This document shows, piece by piece, positions 6,103 to 42,735 of a stretch of DNA of 45,476 bases. The position numbers were made by a program, and so were the translations under genes. The notes under the pieces are model-generated. The model was not told where the DNA came from, searched no databases, and worked only from the letters and a program-made list of their open reading frames with translations. The stretch is from Escherichia phage vB_VIPECOTPH05A. Numbering within the stretch: position 1 is the stretch's first letter; each line of letters starts with the position of its first letter. Location: sequence record PQ429079.1; one strand, 5' to 3'.

Positions 6103-6271
6103 AGTCAATTACCCCGAACTCGTTGATGATTTGCGCCTTGTAGAAGTTGCCGTTTGATGCCAGGTGATACGCCTGCGCCATAGTCATCTCGCGATAAGTT
6201 GCTGCGCTGTTTTCGAATTCCATAACCATCAAAGTAACCATCTTCTGTCTCTCCTCTCGTTTGTGTAAATG

Positions 6272-8280: not shown

Positions 8281-8311
8281 TTGTTTCGTTAACTGATAAT
8301 GGGGTTTGAGA

Positions 8312-8482
8312 ATGACGCAGAATGAGGTAGCTGAGCGCATCGGGGTTACCCGTCGCACGCTGAATAACTGGTTAAAGAGTGGGAAGTTCCCGGATTGTTG
8401 TATTCGCATTATGGGCCGTCGTCAGCCAGGTACGTTTGACCCGGAGAAAGTGGAAGCGTGGATTAAGGAGAATGTAAAATGA
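8312..8482 (+). CDS. small HTH DNA-binding protein (56 aa)
   Basis: MTQNEVAERIGVTRRTLNNWLKSGKFP is a clear helix-turn-helix; below ORF-track cutoff; stop overlaps next start (ATGA). Confidence 0.55.
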   Translation: MTQNEVAERIGVTRRTLNNWLKSGKFPDCCIRIMGRRQPGTFDPEKVEAWIKENVK

Positions 8483-11041: not shown

Positions 11042-11066
11042 AAAAGAAAGGGGCGTTAAGCCCCTT
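11042..11066 (-). terminator. hairpin terminator between convergent genes
   Basis: stem AAGGGGC/GCCCCTT; U-run on minus-strand side only. Confidence 0.4.
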
Positions 11067-11271
11067 CACCGAACGCCAGCCACTTGGCGTCTACTTCCAG
11101 CACTTCCGCCAGCTTGAACAGCGTCACCGGGCGGACGTCCTGAGTTACCCCGAGCGCAAGCTGGTTAATTGCGCCCTGGGAAACTCCAGTCAGGACAGCC
11201 AGACGGCGCTGGGAGATGCCAAGTTCTTTACGGCGTTGTTCTACGCGAATGCCTAGTTCAGATGGTTGCAT
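11056..11271 (-). CDS. XRE-family HTH transcriptional regulator (Cro/CI-like)
   Basis: 71 aa; RKELGISQRRLAVLTGVSQGAINQLALG is a typical XRE HTH; opposite strand inside the replication module. Confidence 0.7.
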   Translation of the reverse strand: MQPSELGIRVEQRRKELGISQRRLAVLTGVSQGAINQLALGVTQDVRPVTLFKLAEVLEVDAKWLAFGEGA

Positions 11272-12166: not shown

Positions 12167-12502
12167 ATGAACTACGAGAATTTAACAGACATAGAAATTA
12201 ATGCACGTGTCAGCCGCGCGCTATACGGTGATGTTTCGCGAGGGCATCAGATGGAATTGGCTTCTGGAATAGTAGACTATTGTAACCGTATAGATGACGC
12301 ATGGCCTATCATCACCGGTAACAACATCTCGATTGTAGCTACAGATTTAGAATGGATTGCTTTACCGGATAATGCGGTTATCGACGGTATTACCGGAGAC
12401 GCAACCAGTATGATTTACGTAGATGACTCATGTGTTATTGGTAAAAACCCTCTACGCGCCGCTATGATTGTCTTCTTGAGAACGCATGAGGTGGATAAAT
12501 GA
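12167..12502 (+). CDS. hypothetical protein
   Basis: 111-aa ORF. Confidence 0.45.
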   Translation: MNYENLTDIEINARVSRALYGDVSRGHQMELASGIVDYCNRIDDAWPIITGNNISIVATDLEWIALPDNAVIDGITGDATSMIYVDDSCVIGKNPLRAAMIVFLRTHEVDK

Positions 12503-30395: not shown

Positions 30396-31151
30396 ATATT
30401 CCGTCTAAGCCCATGATAACCTCGGCTTCGAACAAACTTATGCCGTAACCGGCGACATCGCGAAACGCAGCCAAATCTTGCCATTTGAGCGCATCGCGCG
30501 GGATTATAACGATAGTATCATCTGTTTCGCGCTGTAGGAATTTAATGGCCCGGTATTTCTCGAACACGTCGATAAGAGAAACGGGGCATTCCGGCCCCGT
30601 CGCTTCTTTCATCTGCGGTTCTTTAATCACGCCCATTGCAATCAAAGCCGCCTGGTGTCCCGCCGCGATGTCGTCGAATTGCTTACGTTTGTGGCGGTCG
30701 ACAAAGCACCATTGCGCAAATTCATACAGCGCTTTTACTTTTCCGAGAGTTTCTCGCGGCTATCGGTGTGGTGCTTAACTACAGCCTCCGCCAACCCACT
30801 GTACTGGTCGAACAGGTTAGCCAGCGCCTCTTTACTGAACGGCTCATCGAAGGACCAACCGGTGACGATTTCCACGGCGAGCTGCTTGTTCAGGTCCATA
30901 ACCCGCCAGCCCTTCTCATCGTTATAGCGCGCCCAGTTATTCAATGCCTCACACTCTTTATCTAACGGCGCAAGTTCTTCCGTAAGGCGTCGAATTGCCG
31001 TTGTGTAGGCGCGGCCTGCTCGAACGCCCGCATCGCAATCGGGGCCAATGACCTGCAGCCATTCGCCAGAGTCTTTTCCGCTAGGCAGAAGGATTGGCAT
31101 TTTAGTACCGGCGGCGTGACGGTCGGCAAAATAGAAATCAGAAAGTTTCAT
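30373..31151 (-). CDS. tail assembly chaperone frameshift product (GT-like, via -1 frameshift near 30738)
   Basis: -1 frame is open from the G stop region through 30373; ORF-track 30373..30645 is its 3' part. Confidence 0.5.
30735..31151 (-). CDS. tail assembly chaperone (G-like)
   Basis: 138-aa ORF upstream of tape measure, ends ...SEK at slippery GAA-AAG-TAA. Confidence 0.6.
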   Translation of the reverse strand: MKLSDFYFADRHAAGTKMPILLPSGKDSGEWLQVIGPDCDAGVRAGRAYTTAIRRLTEELAPLDKECEALNNWARYNDEKGWRVMDLNKQLAVEIVTGWSFDEPFSKEALANLFDQYSGLAEAVVKHHTDSREKLSEK

Positions 31152-33422: not shown

Positions 33423-33452
33423 GAAAAAGGCCCCGTTAGGGGCCTTAGTTTT
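33422..33452. terminator. bidirectional rho-independent terminator
   Basis: stem AGGCCCC/GGGGCCT flanked by A5 and T-rich runs, between island and major tail gene. Confidence 0.7.
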
Positions 33453-37855: not shown

Positions 37856-37889
37856 CTTAGTAAAAGAAAAGAGGGACCGAAGTCCCTCT
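37856..37889 (-). terminator. rho-independent terminator downstream of capsid gene
   Basis: stem AGAGGGAC/GTCCCTCT followed on minus strand by UUUCUUUUAC. Confidence 0.6.
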
Positions 37890-37905
37890 CGATTATAGCT
37901 TAACC

Positions 37906-39659: not shown

Positions 39660-39741
39660 AGTCAGTATGTCCCCTGGACGTTGGAATCCGGGCCTCCCGG
39701 ATTTACATGTCAAGAATAAATTATTCCAACATGCAAGGCAA

Positions 39742-40005
39742 CTATTCCAGAATATTCCTCACGTAATCCTGCAACATGAACACTTTCAGTCTCAGTTGCC
39801 GTACACATTCGGCGTTCTGAACGTCGATAGCTAAATCCTCGTCTGCGTCGCTACTTGGCAGTGCCAGTTTGCACGGCGGCTGCATCATCGGCATACCCGG
39901 GGATGGAATTGGCGTTTGCGACGGCGCGGGACTTGAGCTGCACCCGCTCAGGGTCAAAAGTGCACACGCTGCGGCCAGGCGTTTTAATGTACTTAACGAC
40001 TTCAC
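39742..40005 (-). CDS. outer-membrane spanin lipoprotein (Rz1-like)
   Basis: lipobox LTLSGC, Pro-rich mature region; overlaps Rz-like gene in another frame. Confidence 0.6.
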   Translation of the reverse strand: MKSLSTLKRLAAACALLTLSGCSSSPAPSQTPIPSPGMPMMQPPCKLALPSSDADEDLAIDVQNAECVRQLRLKVFMLQDYVRNILE

Positions 40006-40237
40006 GGGTTATCACCTCTGATTTCGTTTTGCCTTCGTTGTCAGCGGCGGCGGCCTTTGATTCATCCTGCTGCTGCCGTTGTGTTTTCTTCGCGAACTCA
40101 GCCTGTGCTTTCTGCTGTTGCTGCGAAACGAGATTAGCACGGCCTTCACCCCAGCCGCTGCGGTATTGATAGATGCCGTGTGCGTAGGCCAGGACGACGA
40201 AACATGCTCCGGCTACGACAGTTGCTTTAAGATTCAT
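39851..40237 (-). CDS. inner-membrane spanin (Rz-like)
   Basis: N-terminal TMD ATVVAGACFVVLAYA followed by Gln/Ala/Lys-rich predicted helix. Confidence 0.6.
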   Translation of the reverse strand: MNLKATVVAGACFVVLAYAHGIYQYRSGWGEGRANLVSQQQQKAQAEFAKKTQRQQQDESKAAAADNEGKTKSEVITREVVKYIKTPGRSVCTFDPERVQLKSRAVANANSIPGYADDAAAVQTGTAK

Positions 40238-40488
40238 GTTTCCCCTTTCTCGATAAGTAAAGCCCCGCCTTAAAGCGGGGCGCTAGTCCTTATCATTTAA
40301 ACATAGAAACGGCGTAATCTCAGTAAACCAGTTACTTTTTACACAAGCAATAGAGTATGGCCCTTCCGAACGCGTCAGCGTAACTACACTCAGGACTTAC
40401 GTCCCGCTCCGTTACCTGCCCGCGCCGCGGTCGCTTGTTCATACTTCACAAGCTCAGGTGGAGCTTATCATATTTTCAGTGAAAAGTC

Positions 40489-40504
40489 AACTATTCGAAT
40501 AGTT
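40489..40504. promoter_or_regulatory. perfect 16-bp palindrome AACTATTCGAATAGTT (operator-like)
   Basis: exact inverted repeat about 55 bp upstream of promoter at 40557; half-site ACTATTC recurs in -10/start regions of other promoters. Confidence 0.45.
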
Positions 40505-40556
40505 TATTCCAACGTTTACAATTGAGTGGAATAACTGGAATACGTAAATAAATAGT

Positions 40557-40585
40557 TTGCGCGCACCAACATAATAGGGTACTAT
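40557..40585 (+). promoter_or_regulatory. sigma70-like promoter (TTGCGC-N17-TACTAT)
   Basis: same -10/start context (GGGTACTATTCA) as promoter at 31259. Confidence 0.5.
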
Positions 40586-40612
40586 TCAGTTAACTTAAAC
40601 AGGAGATGAGAA

Positions 40613-41134
40613 ATGATTACTACAGTAATTACTTTCCCTGCGTATGTAGGGGCGAAAATATGCAGGGCTAAAAATGATGTGCGCTACTATTTGAACGCTT
40701 TTTACATAGACCCTGAAGGATTGATAGTGTCTACGGACGGTCATAGATTGTTCTGCGACAATGTGAAGACCAACGTTGAGAAAGGGACTCTCATAGACAT
40801 CAAAGGGAGAGAGCCTTCTAAATTTAACTACGCGGAGGTAAACCACGACAACGGCAGTGTATCTTTCTATGACGATAATCGTGCGCTTATATGTACACTT
40901 CCGGTAGATGTTGTAGAAGGAAACTTTCCTGACTGGAGACGCGTGGTGCACATCACACCGGGTGTTGTCGATAGTATAGGGTTCACTCTGCGCTATTTGG
41001 CAGACGCGTACAAGATTTCTAAGGCATACAAAAATGAAATTGCTCGTTTCGATTTCCAGGACCAAACCAGAGGATGCAAAATACAATTTTCAAACACGGC
41101 CTTTATGGTGTTAATGCCCGCGCGATTTAAATAA
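40613..41134 (+). CDS. hypothetical protein (opposite-strand moron)
   Basis: 173-aa ORF with AGGAG RBS, own promoter and terminator; possible PD-(D/E)XK-like pattern STDGHRL...IDIKGRE (weak). Confidence 0.55.
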   Translation: MITTVITFPAYVGAKICRAKNDVRYYLNAFYIDPEGLIVSTDGHRLFCDNVKTNVEKGTLIDIKGREPSKFNYAEVNHDNGSVSFYDDNRALICTLPVDVVEGNFPDWRRVVHITPGVVDSIGFTLRYLADAYKISKAYKNEIARFDFQDQTRGCKIQFSNTAFMVLMPARFK

Positions 41135-41137
41135 AAC

Positions 41138-41166
41138 TAAGGCCCCATATGGGGCCTTTTATCATT
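41138..41166. terminator. bidirectional rho-independent terminator
   Basis: stem AAGGCCCC/GGGGCCTT with T4 run. Confidence 0.7.
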
Positions 41167-41623: not shown

Positions 41624-42699
41624 TATTCCCCTTTCAGATAATCAGCAACACGTTTATCGAGTTCCGCCATCTGCTTAAGCGTGAGCGGATTCCCGAAACC
41701 ATCTACAGATATTACGCGAAACTCTTCCGGCGATATACCGCTGTTACGGAAAATCTTACCGCGGGTCGGCCCGAGTGCTTCGTCCACGAACCACGCCGGT
41801 TGTTGTTCCAGGAACTCGTAGTAAGTGGTGTCTGCGCTTACCTGAGTACCTCCGTCCGCGCCCTTAGCCGCACGTTTTGCACCTTTATCGAGGAAGTCGA
41901 ACTCTGAACTGATTACAGGTGCCGTGGTACTTCGGCACCCAAAATGGGCCGGGGGTATCGGCCCCTTACCGATTTCCCACGTCATTCCGTCTCTGGCCCT
42001 ACAAATCGTACTGGTACGGCTGTCTAGCGTTGACACCCACTCGTACTTCTCGATGATGTCGTCGTTCTGGCGGTACGTCTCGTTACGGGCCTCGTTGGAT
42101 ACATGAGACAGCGCGGTGCGGATTACCGTAGCTGCGTTACGCTCGGAGATGTCCGCCAAACCACCAGCACCAACAACATTCTTAACAATCTGCCGTGTTG
42201 TCTTACCCTGAACAAAGCCCATCTTAACGCCGGTTACGAGACGTGCTACTTCGGTTTCGCCCCATCCCGACATCAGCTTAGTGAAATCAACAGGCTTGTC
42301 GCTTAATGATAAGGGTTGAAACTCGGCAGCGGACCACACCTGTTCGGCGGTAGGCGTAACAAATTCCGCATCTACGTTGGTGGTCAGTGTCTTTACATTC
42401 CACTCGGCCTCATACGCCGCCAGTTCCATAAGGTCTTCTGTCAGCTTTGTTTGCCAGTCACCGGTAAGCGCGGTAAGTGCTTCTTCAAGGTCGCGTAACA
42501 GTTTATTCAGTCGCGCGGTGCTTCGCCCGTCGTCGCCGAATAACAGCACCTGCCGTTTTATTTCGTCCCGCATCTCCTTAATGAACGGCGCGAGGTCTTT
42601 CACCTCACCGGATGCAGTGCGTTGCAGCCATATCTGGTGGCTGATTAGAGATGTAAGTAAGCTCATAGATAAACCCTGTGGCGCTAAAGTTAATAGCAT
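41623..42699 (-). CDS. head morphogenesis protein (SPP1 gp7 / Mu F-like)
   Basis: WVSTLDSRTSTICRARDGMTWEIGKGPIPPAHFGCRSTT fits that family; real start may be Met at 42666. Confidence 0.65.
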   Translation of the reverse strand: MLLTLAPQGLSMSLLTSLISHQIWLQRTASGEVKDLAPFIKEMRDEIKRQVLLFGDDGRSTARLNKLLRDLEEALTALTGDWQTKLTEDLMELAAYEAEWNVKTLTTNVDAEFVTPTAEQVWSAAEFQPLSLSDKPVDFTKLMSGWGETEVARLVTGVKMGFVQGKTTRQIVKNVVGAGGLADISERNAATVIRTALSHVSNEARNETYRQNDDIIEKYEWVSTLDSRTSTICRARDGMTWEIGKGPIPPAHFGCRSTTAPVISSEFDFLDKGAKRAAKGADGGTQVSADTTYYEFLEQQPAWFVDEALGPTRGKIFRNSGISPEEFRVISVDGFGNPLTLKQMAELDKRVADYLKGE

Positions 42700-42735
42700 A
42701 CTATAAGAAAGCCCCTTTCGGGGCTATATGTGAAC

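Follow-up and report, generated by a model that had tools for sequence, protein, structure and literature searches.

The genome of Escherichia phage vB_VIPECOTPH05A (record PQ429079.1, 45,476 nucleotides, analysed over its full length and referred to below as the window) contains a perfect 16-bp palindrome, AACTATTCGAATAGTT, in the intergenic region between an i-spanin gene and a small inserted gene, or 'moron', of the opposite orientation. A first-pass annotation had read this palindrome as the operator of a dimeric DNA-binding protein that controls the moron promoter. On balance, our analysis leans towards a different assignment, in which the palindrome belongs to the upstream control region of a leftward sigma-70 promoter, here designated PA, and is not a moron operator. 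The palindrome persists in phages without the moron, the conserved sequence block that holds it ends at position 40542, and it directly adjoins the -35 hexamer of the promoter on the opposite strand.

A predicted leftward promoter adjoins the palindrome

The observations reported here concern sequence anatomy, conservation pattern and RNA covariation. The window is a complete Kagunavirus-type genome (subfamily Guernseyvirinae), and the tested kilobase is 98.5% identical to vB_EcoS_fFiEco02, vB_VIPECOMC04 and similar phages. It was compared to 47 related IMG/VR loci (designated L with a number), of which 36 form the main group, and to four more distant relatives. The elements next to the palindrome are the following.

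40489-40504, no strand: perfect 16-bp palindrome AACTATTC|GAATAGTT, covering PA positions -34 to -49 and centred on -41.5
40490-40485, minus strand: PA -35 hexamer TTGACT, preceded by GAATAG, the left arm of the palindrome
40470-40469 and 40467-40462, minus strand: PA extended -10 element, TG followed by a single a and by TAAGCT; predicted start at a G at about 40455
40497-40510, minus strand: dyad GGAATA-N3-TATTC (GGAATAAACTATTC), centred at about -48.5 of PA
40527-40542, minus strand: two direct boxes TATTCC-AGT-TATTCC (plus strand TGGAATAACTGGAATA) with a 9-bp period, at about -73 to -87 of PA
40450-40466, no strand: inverted repeat AAGCTC-N5-GAGCTT, overlapping the -10 element and the start of PA

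The two hexamers of PA lie 17 nt apart. TTGACT agrees with the consensus in five of six positions and is followed at this spacing by a TAnnnT hexamer, with a TG one base upstream of the -10 element. The pattern TGnTA(A/C)GCT is present in 47 of 47 related loci, and in Cornellvirus the sequence TGaTAACCT stands at the same distance from the boxes. Single-base variants of the -35 hexamer do occur, TAGACT in most loci of the Jersey-type group, TAGATT in two and TCGACT in L016. The spacer is fixed in length at 17 nt, and its sequence is polymorphic in the main group and almost wholly different in the Jersey-type phages. Conserved hexamers and TG, together with a spacer of fixed length and free sequence, are what the footprint of an extended -10 sigma-70 promoter should look like. 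The motif TAGTTGMCT, i.e. TAGTTG(A/C)CT, is found exactly at 2359, 39736 and 40485 on the minus strand, in all cases intergenic and directed leftward, and TAGTTGACT at PA is found again at 2359. In the moron-free phages Jersey (L053) and fTaEco01 (L095), an intrinsic terminator is located approximately 14-20 nt upstream of the distal box, so that a restart promoter would be needed at the position of PA. From this sequence evidence we infer that PA is an active promoter of the host polymerase with a start site at approximately 40455.

Conservation of the palindrome

About 180 phage records, with different cargo genes or none, share the block from 40238 to 40542 at an identity of 94% or more, and similarity ends at 40542, just short of the moron promoter cassette. 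Across genera the block is more conserved than the spanin gene, for example with 99.5% versus 74.9% identity in L040 and 94.5-95.7% versus 78% in L037 and L038. Within the main group the palindrome is exact in 31 of 36 loci, with one copy per locus. Phage fTaEco01 has the exact palindrome and no moron, and the palindrome is also kept next to other cargo genes. It is absent from the Jersey-type and Cornellvirus phages, where CTTTATTC|AAAAAGTT and, in Cornellvirus FSL SP-049, AATTATTCC|AAAAGT are found at the same position.

An operator would be expected to maintain its symmetry in relatives, and this is not what we observe. The main lineage contains six different single-arm variants of the palindrome, all of them uncompensated in the other arm, which speaks against selection on the symmetry itself, in spite of the number of exact loci. 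The TATTC half of the dyad GGAATA-N3-TATTC forms the right arm of the palindrome. The palindrome can thus be read, from the arrangement of these words, as the junction of the TATTC half of an older dyad with a GAATAG box that lies flush with the -35 hexamer of PA. Its perfect symmetry is then most likely incidental, and the palindrome looks like a lineage-specific by-product of the GGAATA/GAATAG boxes upstream of a leftward promoter.

As a perfect palindrome with two arms of eight bases at 40489-40504, the element is exactly as the first-pass annotation had described it. In Markov-1 shuffles, 0.72 perfect palindromes of at least 16 bp are expected per window, and the window holds two, the other being a bidirectional terminator at 41139-41158; these two are its longest palindromes. 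With 0.72 expected, the 16-bp palindrome by itself is not beyond chance. What does go beyond chance is conservation and the recurrence of the component words elsewhere, rather than the palindrome as such. Note that short palindromes are rare throughout the genome, with five of at least 12 bp (arms of at least 6 nt) against 12.7 expected, and that 99.5% of the shuffles hold as many or more than the window, a depletion consistent with avoidance of restriction sites. A plus-strand promoter making use of the palindrome was also sought by inspection, which yielded no acceptable pair of hexamers.

Two neighbouring inverted repeats had been reported along with the palindrome. The repeat AAGCTC/GAGCTT is present as described, with arms of 6 nt and a loop of 5 nt, and is probably incidental. 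Inverted repeats of 6 nt are common locally (35 pairs in 381 bp), and in the Jersey-type group the direct repeat AGCGT-N4-AGCGT stands in its place. Half of AAGCTC-N5-GAGCTT lies upstream of the predicted PA start, so that it cannot form in the RNA. As a terminator for the plus strand it was rejected, as there is no plus-strand transcript to end, it is missing in the Jersey-type phages, and it overlaps the -10 element and start of PA. The second repeat likewise exists, with coordinates one base off from those first given: TTATTCCA forms one arm, at 40504-40511, and TGGAATAA the other, at 40527-40534. A further copy of TGGAATA, the third, lies at 40536-40542 and had been overlooked.

Conserved boxes and a second promoter-like element

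Common to three genera, Kagunavirus, Jerseyvirus and Cornellvirus, are the two TATTCC boxes, the GGAATA-N3-TATTC(C) dyad and the TGn-extended -10 element. The distal TATTCC boxes form the end of the conserved block; they are invariant in the Jersey-type group and present in Cornellvirus. The GGAATA-N3-TATTC(C) dyad follows approximately 16-17 nt beyond them, and its Cornellvirus version, GGAATAAATTATTCC, is itself a perfect palindrome of 15 bp. An IMG/VR search with the pattern TATTCCAGTTATTCC-N12-24-GGAATA returned 39 matches, all from the same phage family and none from outside.

Clusters of at least three GGAATA hexamers occur in the window at two places only, one at PA and the other at a second promoter-like element, PB, located 780 bp downstream of PA.

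39713-39748, minus strand: PB, consisting of GGAATAG, TTGCCT (39741-39736), N17 and TATTCT (39718-39713), upstream of the scaffold and capsid genes

The sequence GAATA-N3-TATTC has two exact copies in the window (39714 and 40497), and phage Jersey holds it at the same two orthologous sites only. At PB, the dyad GGAATA-N3-TATTC (39727-39714) covers the spacer and the -10 element. The combination GAATAG-TTG(A/C)CT of PA is found again at PB; a GAATAG adjoining the -35 hexamer is seen at PB in all three genera, and at PA in the main lineage only. Jersey-type, St162 and Cornellvirus phages all keep PB, including those in which another gene is its upstream neighbour. It is followed by a covarying hairpin, AATCCGGG/CCCGGATT (39703-39685), that lacks a U-tract and lies upstream of the scaffold gene. 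We found no publications that describe PA and PB with their conserved boxes or the covarying leader RNA presented below.

The AATAG-N4-CTATT dyad

The half-site ACTATTC, which the first-pass annotation had linked to several promoters, is a recurrent promoter-associated word. A motif search yielded 12 copies in the window against 4.83 expected, a number reached in 0 of 100 shuffles, and the word is indeed present at the promoter-like sites that had been listed, 6271 and 7850 on the minus strand and 31283 and 40581 on the plus strand. Its reverse complement is GAATAGT. In an alignment of the 12 contexts, ACTATTC turned out to form, at eight sites, the right half of a dyad of 14 bp, AATAG-N4-CTATT. 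The window contains eight exact and four one-mismatch copies of this dyad, against 1.33 expected.

6272, 7851, 11302, 11346, 12268, 14368, 18929, 31275 and 40573: 14-bp sites of the type AATAG-N4-CTATT
40482-40495, no strand: one-mismatch dyad (minus strand AATAG-TTGA-CTTTT, plus strand AAAAG-TCAA-CTATT), centred on the -35 hexamer of PA and overlapping the left arm of the palindrome

The dyad overlies the -10 element of four conserved class I promoters (TTGCAC/TTGCGC, N17, TACTAT), at 6271 and 7850 on the minus and 31283 and 40581 on the plus strand, and in the rightward replication operon it is situated in the spacer of the three promoters that best fit the consensus (TTGAC(A/G), N17, TATAGT; 11336, 14358 and 18919). 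Two copies, 11302 and 11346, fall into the 124-bp divergent region upstream of the XRE gene, one of them being that of the 11336 promoter. One exact copy, at 12268, is found inside a coding region without an obvious -35 hexamer. The central four bases are free to vary, both between sites and between phages. Phage Jersey has four exact dyads, three of them within annotated promoters.

This dyad has been published before. In the work on Kagunavirus fBC-Eco01, a 'phage promoter' consensus tgAATAGTa-ccTATTat-T was obtained with PHIRE (PMC9825357), and it represents the 14-bp dyad AATAG-N4-CTATT, with the half-site included. Its authors credited the consensus to a phage RNA polymerase (PMC9825357), and no such polymerase is annotated in a close relative. 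The half-site and the operator-like promoter dyad are therefore real and already known. The 16-bp palindrome, in contrast, is no copy of the consensus. Its halves are everted, in the order CTATT-CG-AATAG, and no second copy of similar structure exists in the window. As a whole it does not fit AATAG-N4-CTATT and does not share its geometry, and only the one-mismatch copy overlaps its left arm. No published description of the palindrome was found in our literature search. Thus, from the proposal of a dimeric regulator, the promoter-associated half-site and dyad can be retained, but not the palindrome, which is everted relative to that dyad, unique in the window and confined in its symmetry to one lineage.

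The layout at 40482-40495 matches that at 2356-2369 (ACTAG-TTGA-CTATT), which is placed on the -35 hexamer of the leftward promoter 2364-2336. This promoter, TTGACT-N17-TATATT, comes after the terminator downstream of the endolysin gene. Another one-mismatch dyad, at 42692-42705, comes after the terminator between the portal and head-morphogenesis genes.

A predicted structured leader RNA

The sequence downstream of the predicted PA start is expected to yield a structured RNA.

40250-40455, minus strand: predicted leader RNA of about 200 nt, composed of a hairpin at the 5' end, a nested central domain rich in GC (40430-40366) and a terminator hairpin
40281-40262, minus strand: hairpin of the terminator type, GCCCCGC-TTTAAG-GCGGGGC, then TTTACTTAT; the spanin start codon lies 24 nt further downstream

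An RNAalifold consensus was calculated from 38 distinct sequences. It comprises a long-range helix between the 5' and 3' parts, the nested central domain with an inner hairpin at 40406-40391, and the terminator. Nine leader pairs show compensatory changes on both sides, and the inner hairpin switches from GGAC/GTCC to GTGC/GCAC and to GGCG/CGCC among the sequences. The leader cells are paired to 98.5%, versus 34-54% in controls with slid partners, and the covariation score is 0.228 versus 0.01-0.05, with 0 of 500 shuffles reaching the observed value, although all these numbers are somewhat inflated, as the structure was derived from the same alignment that was used to score it. Six leader pairs are mostly G-U or U-G, and the fold energy is -71.3 kcal/mol for the minus strand versus -52.5 kcal/mol for the plus strand, both of which point to an RNA transcribed from the minus strand. 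The intergenic region 40238-40612 is probably transcribed on that strand.

In phage Schulenburg, an open reading frame (ORF) of 36 aa, 40442-40332, is annotated within this region. We rejected it as a gene because it is broken in 14 of the 38 distinct sequences: it is frameshifted in L006, L016, L018, L021 and L029, without a start in L030, and lost by deletion from the Jersey-type phages. What some deposited genomes list here as a 36-aa 'hypothetical protein' is most likely a structured leader RNA. A search against Rfam gave a best match in the region of 16.2 bits versus a threshold of 42 (E up to 10), and in the whole window no match reached the gathering score; a search of the window for tRNA and tmRNA genes was likewise negative. 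Cornellvirus and Serratia phage Otaku retain a core, (C/G)NTTCGG(A/G)A(A/G)G. In the leaders of Cornellvirus, St162 and Otaku this short core alone is recognisable, and the folds differ.

The terminator-like hairpin has a GC stem of 7-8 bp and a U-rich tail, as expected for an intrinsic terminator. Its stem also carries compensatory changes, from CG to GC in eight sequences, from CG to UA in one and from GC to AU in one. The Jersey-type hairpin is poor in its U-tract. Further strong hairpins of the terminator type are located on the minus strand within the leftward structural operon (37869-37890, 33427-33446 and 30580-30601), with few consensus promoters between them.

Cargo genes and the boundary at 40543

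The structural genes are transcribed leftward from the minus strand, and the clamp-like gene is inserted among them as a moron. The intergenic region, described as 325 bp of non-coding sequence in the first-pass annotation, measures 375 bp (40238-40612).

39851-40237, minus strand: i-spanin gene, one flank of the intergenic region
40557-40586, plus strand: moron promoter cassette of class I (TTGCGC, N17, TACTAT) with the exact dyad AATAGGGTACTATT at 40573-40586, driving the 173-aa gene
40613-41134, plus strand: gene for a 173-aa beta-clamp-like protein (the moron), the other flank
41139-41158, both strands: bidirectional terminator following the clamp-like gene

Salmonella phage S100 has a methyltransferase gene after this intergenic region, and fBC-Eco01 has two small genes there, with the clamp gene and its promoter cassette located elsewhere in its genome. 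Cargo cassettes, each with a class I promoter of its own, are inserted right after the distal box at 40543 (loci L005-L051), and this position looks like a recombination boundary and a hot spot for moron insertion. Depending on the record, the clamp-like gene is labelled 'DNA polymerase III sliding clamp' or 'RusA-like resolvase'. Its product has a weak match to the central domain of the Pfam beta-clamp (E 0.006) and matches PHROG 3007 (E 1.7e-36) and PHROG 947, a processivity factor (E 2.4e-9).

Proposed mode of operation and candidate regulators

Taken as a promoter, PA would restart transcription past the bidirectional terminator that closes the portal-to-decoration genes, and it would yield a structured leader of approximately 200 nt, closed by a terminator hairpin immediately ahead of the spanin, scaffold and capsid genes. 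The boxes between -38 and -87 most likely serve as binding sites through which one or more regulatory proteins adjust how active PA is. The word GAATAG is common to PA and PB and to the AATAG-N4-CTATT dyads that overlap early and middle promoters. A single phage regulator could repress the early and middle promoters, where perfect dyads lie over the -10 element or the spacer, and could act differently at PA and PB, where its sites are single or otherwise arranged next to the -35 hexamer. Binding of such a protein and its sign, activating or repressing, are inferred here. The candidates are proteins with a helix-turn-helix (HTH) domain or a related match:

11056-11271: HTH_3/XRE protein
8306-8482: HTH_17 protein
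757-1023: weak NinH-like match

The location of two dyads beside the XRE gene makes a dimer of the XRE/Cro type a reasonable candidate for binding AATAG-N4-CTATT. In a related phage an HTH gene is one of four early genes. The XRE proteins of the window and of phage Jersey are 49% identical and differ in the recognition helix, and the dyads near the Jersey gene are imperfect. With regard to host regulators, none among CRP, FNR, ArgR, PurR, CpxR, OmpR, PhoP, RcsB, IclR, DnaA, Fis, IHF, OxyR, SdiA and MetR is known to have sites that fit the boxes in both sequence and spacing.

Alternative explanations

Apart from the circularity noted for the leader scores, several points speak against the assignment of the palindrome to an upstream region of PA. 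The -10 hexamer TAAGCT matches the consensus in three of six positions only (T-12, A-11 and T-7), and PA falls below a cut-off of 9 of 12 and so is absent from the list produced by a simple promoter scan. The only RNA-seq paper on a Kagunavirus gives the timing at gene level alone (K1B4 time course, PMC12645636). Some main-group loci have box variants, GTAATA, AGAATA or, in L030, a spacing of N4, and the intergenic block is highly conserved as a whole, so that conservation of the palindrome is not specific. The palindrome itself is well kept in the main lineage, which would agree with a lineage-specific site for a dimer.

This last option, a lineage-specific site that works in combination with the older GGAATA boxes and binds a dimer activating or repressing PA, seems rather unlikely to us. 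By coordinate calculation, the centre of the palindrome falls precisely on -41.5 relative to the predicted start, where CRP, FNR and, at PRM, lambda CI bind in the class II arrangement. This speaks for the option, as does the high number of exact loci in a genome otherwise depleted of palindromes. PA nevertheless already has a good -35 hexamer and an extended -10 element, the start site from which the distance is counted is itself a prediction, compensating double changes are missing, and the same promoter does without the palindrome in Jersey-type and Cornellvirus phages. The original proposal, in which an HTH protein such as the XRE product acts as a dimer on the palindrome to control the moron promoter at 40557-40585, is quite improbable. 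A perfect dyad, the enrichment of ACTATTC at promoters, the presence of HTH_3 and HTH_17 proteins, the early HTH gene of a related phage and the exact dyads that overlap the moron promoter and flank the XRE gene would all agree with it. But the half-sites of the palindrome are everted relative to the recurrent dyad, and a fixed dimer cannot bind both alike. The palindrome is moreover a single copy, at a distance of some 95 bp on the upstream side of the moron start, and it is kept next to other cargo or without any moron. Its symmetry is missing in two other genera and broken without compensation.

A different role was considered for the region as a whole, with PA, the boxes, the leader and the terminator forming an antitermination switch for the late genes for which the box and palindrome region serves as loading site. 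We regard this as unlikely. The order of promoter, leader of about 200 nt, intrinsic terminator and late genes is that of such a switch, the leader combines structure with covariation, the phage encodes an HTH_17 protein, and the dyad of PB sits between the -35 and -10 hexamers, in the position of Q or AlpA elements. The terminators further along the late operon (37890 and 33446), with few consensus promoters in between, would make antitermination useful. On the other hand, no Q homologue was found, the boxes of PA lie upstream of the -35 hexamer and not between the hexamers, the Jersey-type hairpin is without a U-tract, the first late promoter (2364-2336) has no such leader, and Rfam shows no match. 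The HTH_17 protein was examined as an AlpA-like antiterminator and discarded, as it showed no match to the Phage_AlpA family or to an AlpA chain in the PDB. That the entire island of GGAATA boxes, PA, leader, terminator and the sister element PB with its hairpin constitutes an undescribed late-gene switch of the Guernseyvirinae is a rather doubtful idea; if it were true, a small DNA-binding protein of the phage or the leader RNA would render the polymerase from PA resistant to the leader terminator and to the later ones in the structural operon, with the box and palindrome region as loading or control site.

The conserved block might finally act at the level of DNA, as a pac site, a replication origin or a boundary for recombination or homing, with the repeats bound by terminase or an initiator. 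Repeats of short boxes are a common trait of pac sites and origins, cargo inserted at 40543 and an exchanged spanin cassette between the box clusters mark the block as a mosaic boundary, and the HTH_17 protein resembles the DNA-binding domains of small terminases. The pattern of hexamers, spacing and TG is nevertheless specific for promoters, G-U pairs and compensatory changes indicate an RNA, and the site is distant from the terminase and replication genes, all of which renders such a role very improbable.

Significance

Phages of the Guernseyvirinae (Kagunavirus and Jerseyvirus) rank with those isolated most frequently for therapeutic use on E. coli and Salmonella, and their transcriptional programme is essentially unmapped. 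A striking palindrome is here re-read as the edge of a leftward promoter region, and a small set of words, AATAG-N4-CTATT, the GGAATA/TATTCC boxes and TAGTTGMCT, marks the promoters of the family. The more interesting results are in fact by-products of the original question: the two elements PA and PB, each with conserved boxes, and a leader RNA that shows covariation. The leader reading would correct the annotation in about 180 deposited genomes, and the boundary for cargo insertion and recombination is useful knowledge for the engineering of these phages.

Comparison with known systems

With its TTGACT hexamer, an N17 spacer that includes TGn, and TAAGCT, preceded by AT-rich boxes from -38 to -87, PA resembles extended -10 sigma-70 promoters with upstream activator sites or UP elements, and in the Jersey-type phages AAAAAG is found at the position of a proximal UP element. 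The boxes of PA differ from generic A/T tracts in that they are specific, repeated hexamers that recur at PB.

Cro/CI-type operators of lambdoid phages are dyads of 14-17 bp that overlap promoters, and the AATAG-N4-CTATT sites are similar to them as a short dyad repeated at several promoters, with two copies beside an XRE-family gene. The position of the palindrome centre at -41.5 is likewise reminiscent of lambda CI, which activates PRM from OR2 at about -42. The present phage is, however, a virulent one in which no module of repressor and integrase is annotated, and the half-sites of the palindrome are oriented differently from those of the putative operator.

The succession of a promoter with boxes in or near it, a short terminated leader and then lysis and structural genes is also found in the lambda system of PR', 6S RNA, tR' and Q, and in Pseudomonas AlpA. 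In these systems the binding elements are placed between the -35 and -10 hexamers, which is true here of PB, but not of PA. The HK022 put RNA, a cis-acting antiterminator, offers a further parallel as a structured leader between a promoter and downstream terminators, and a corresponding function of the leader of PA is conjectural.

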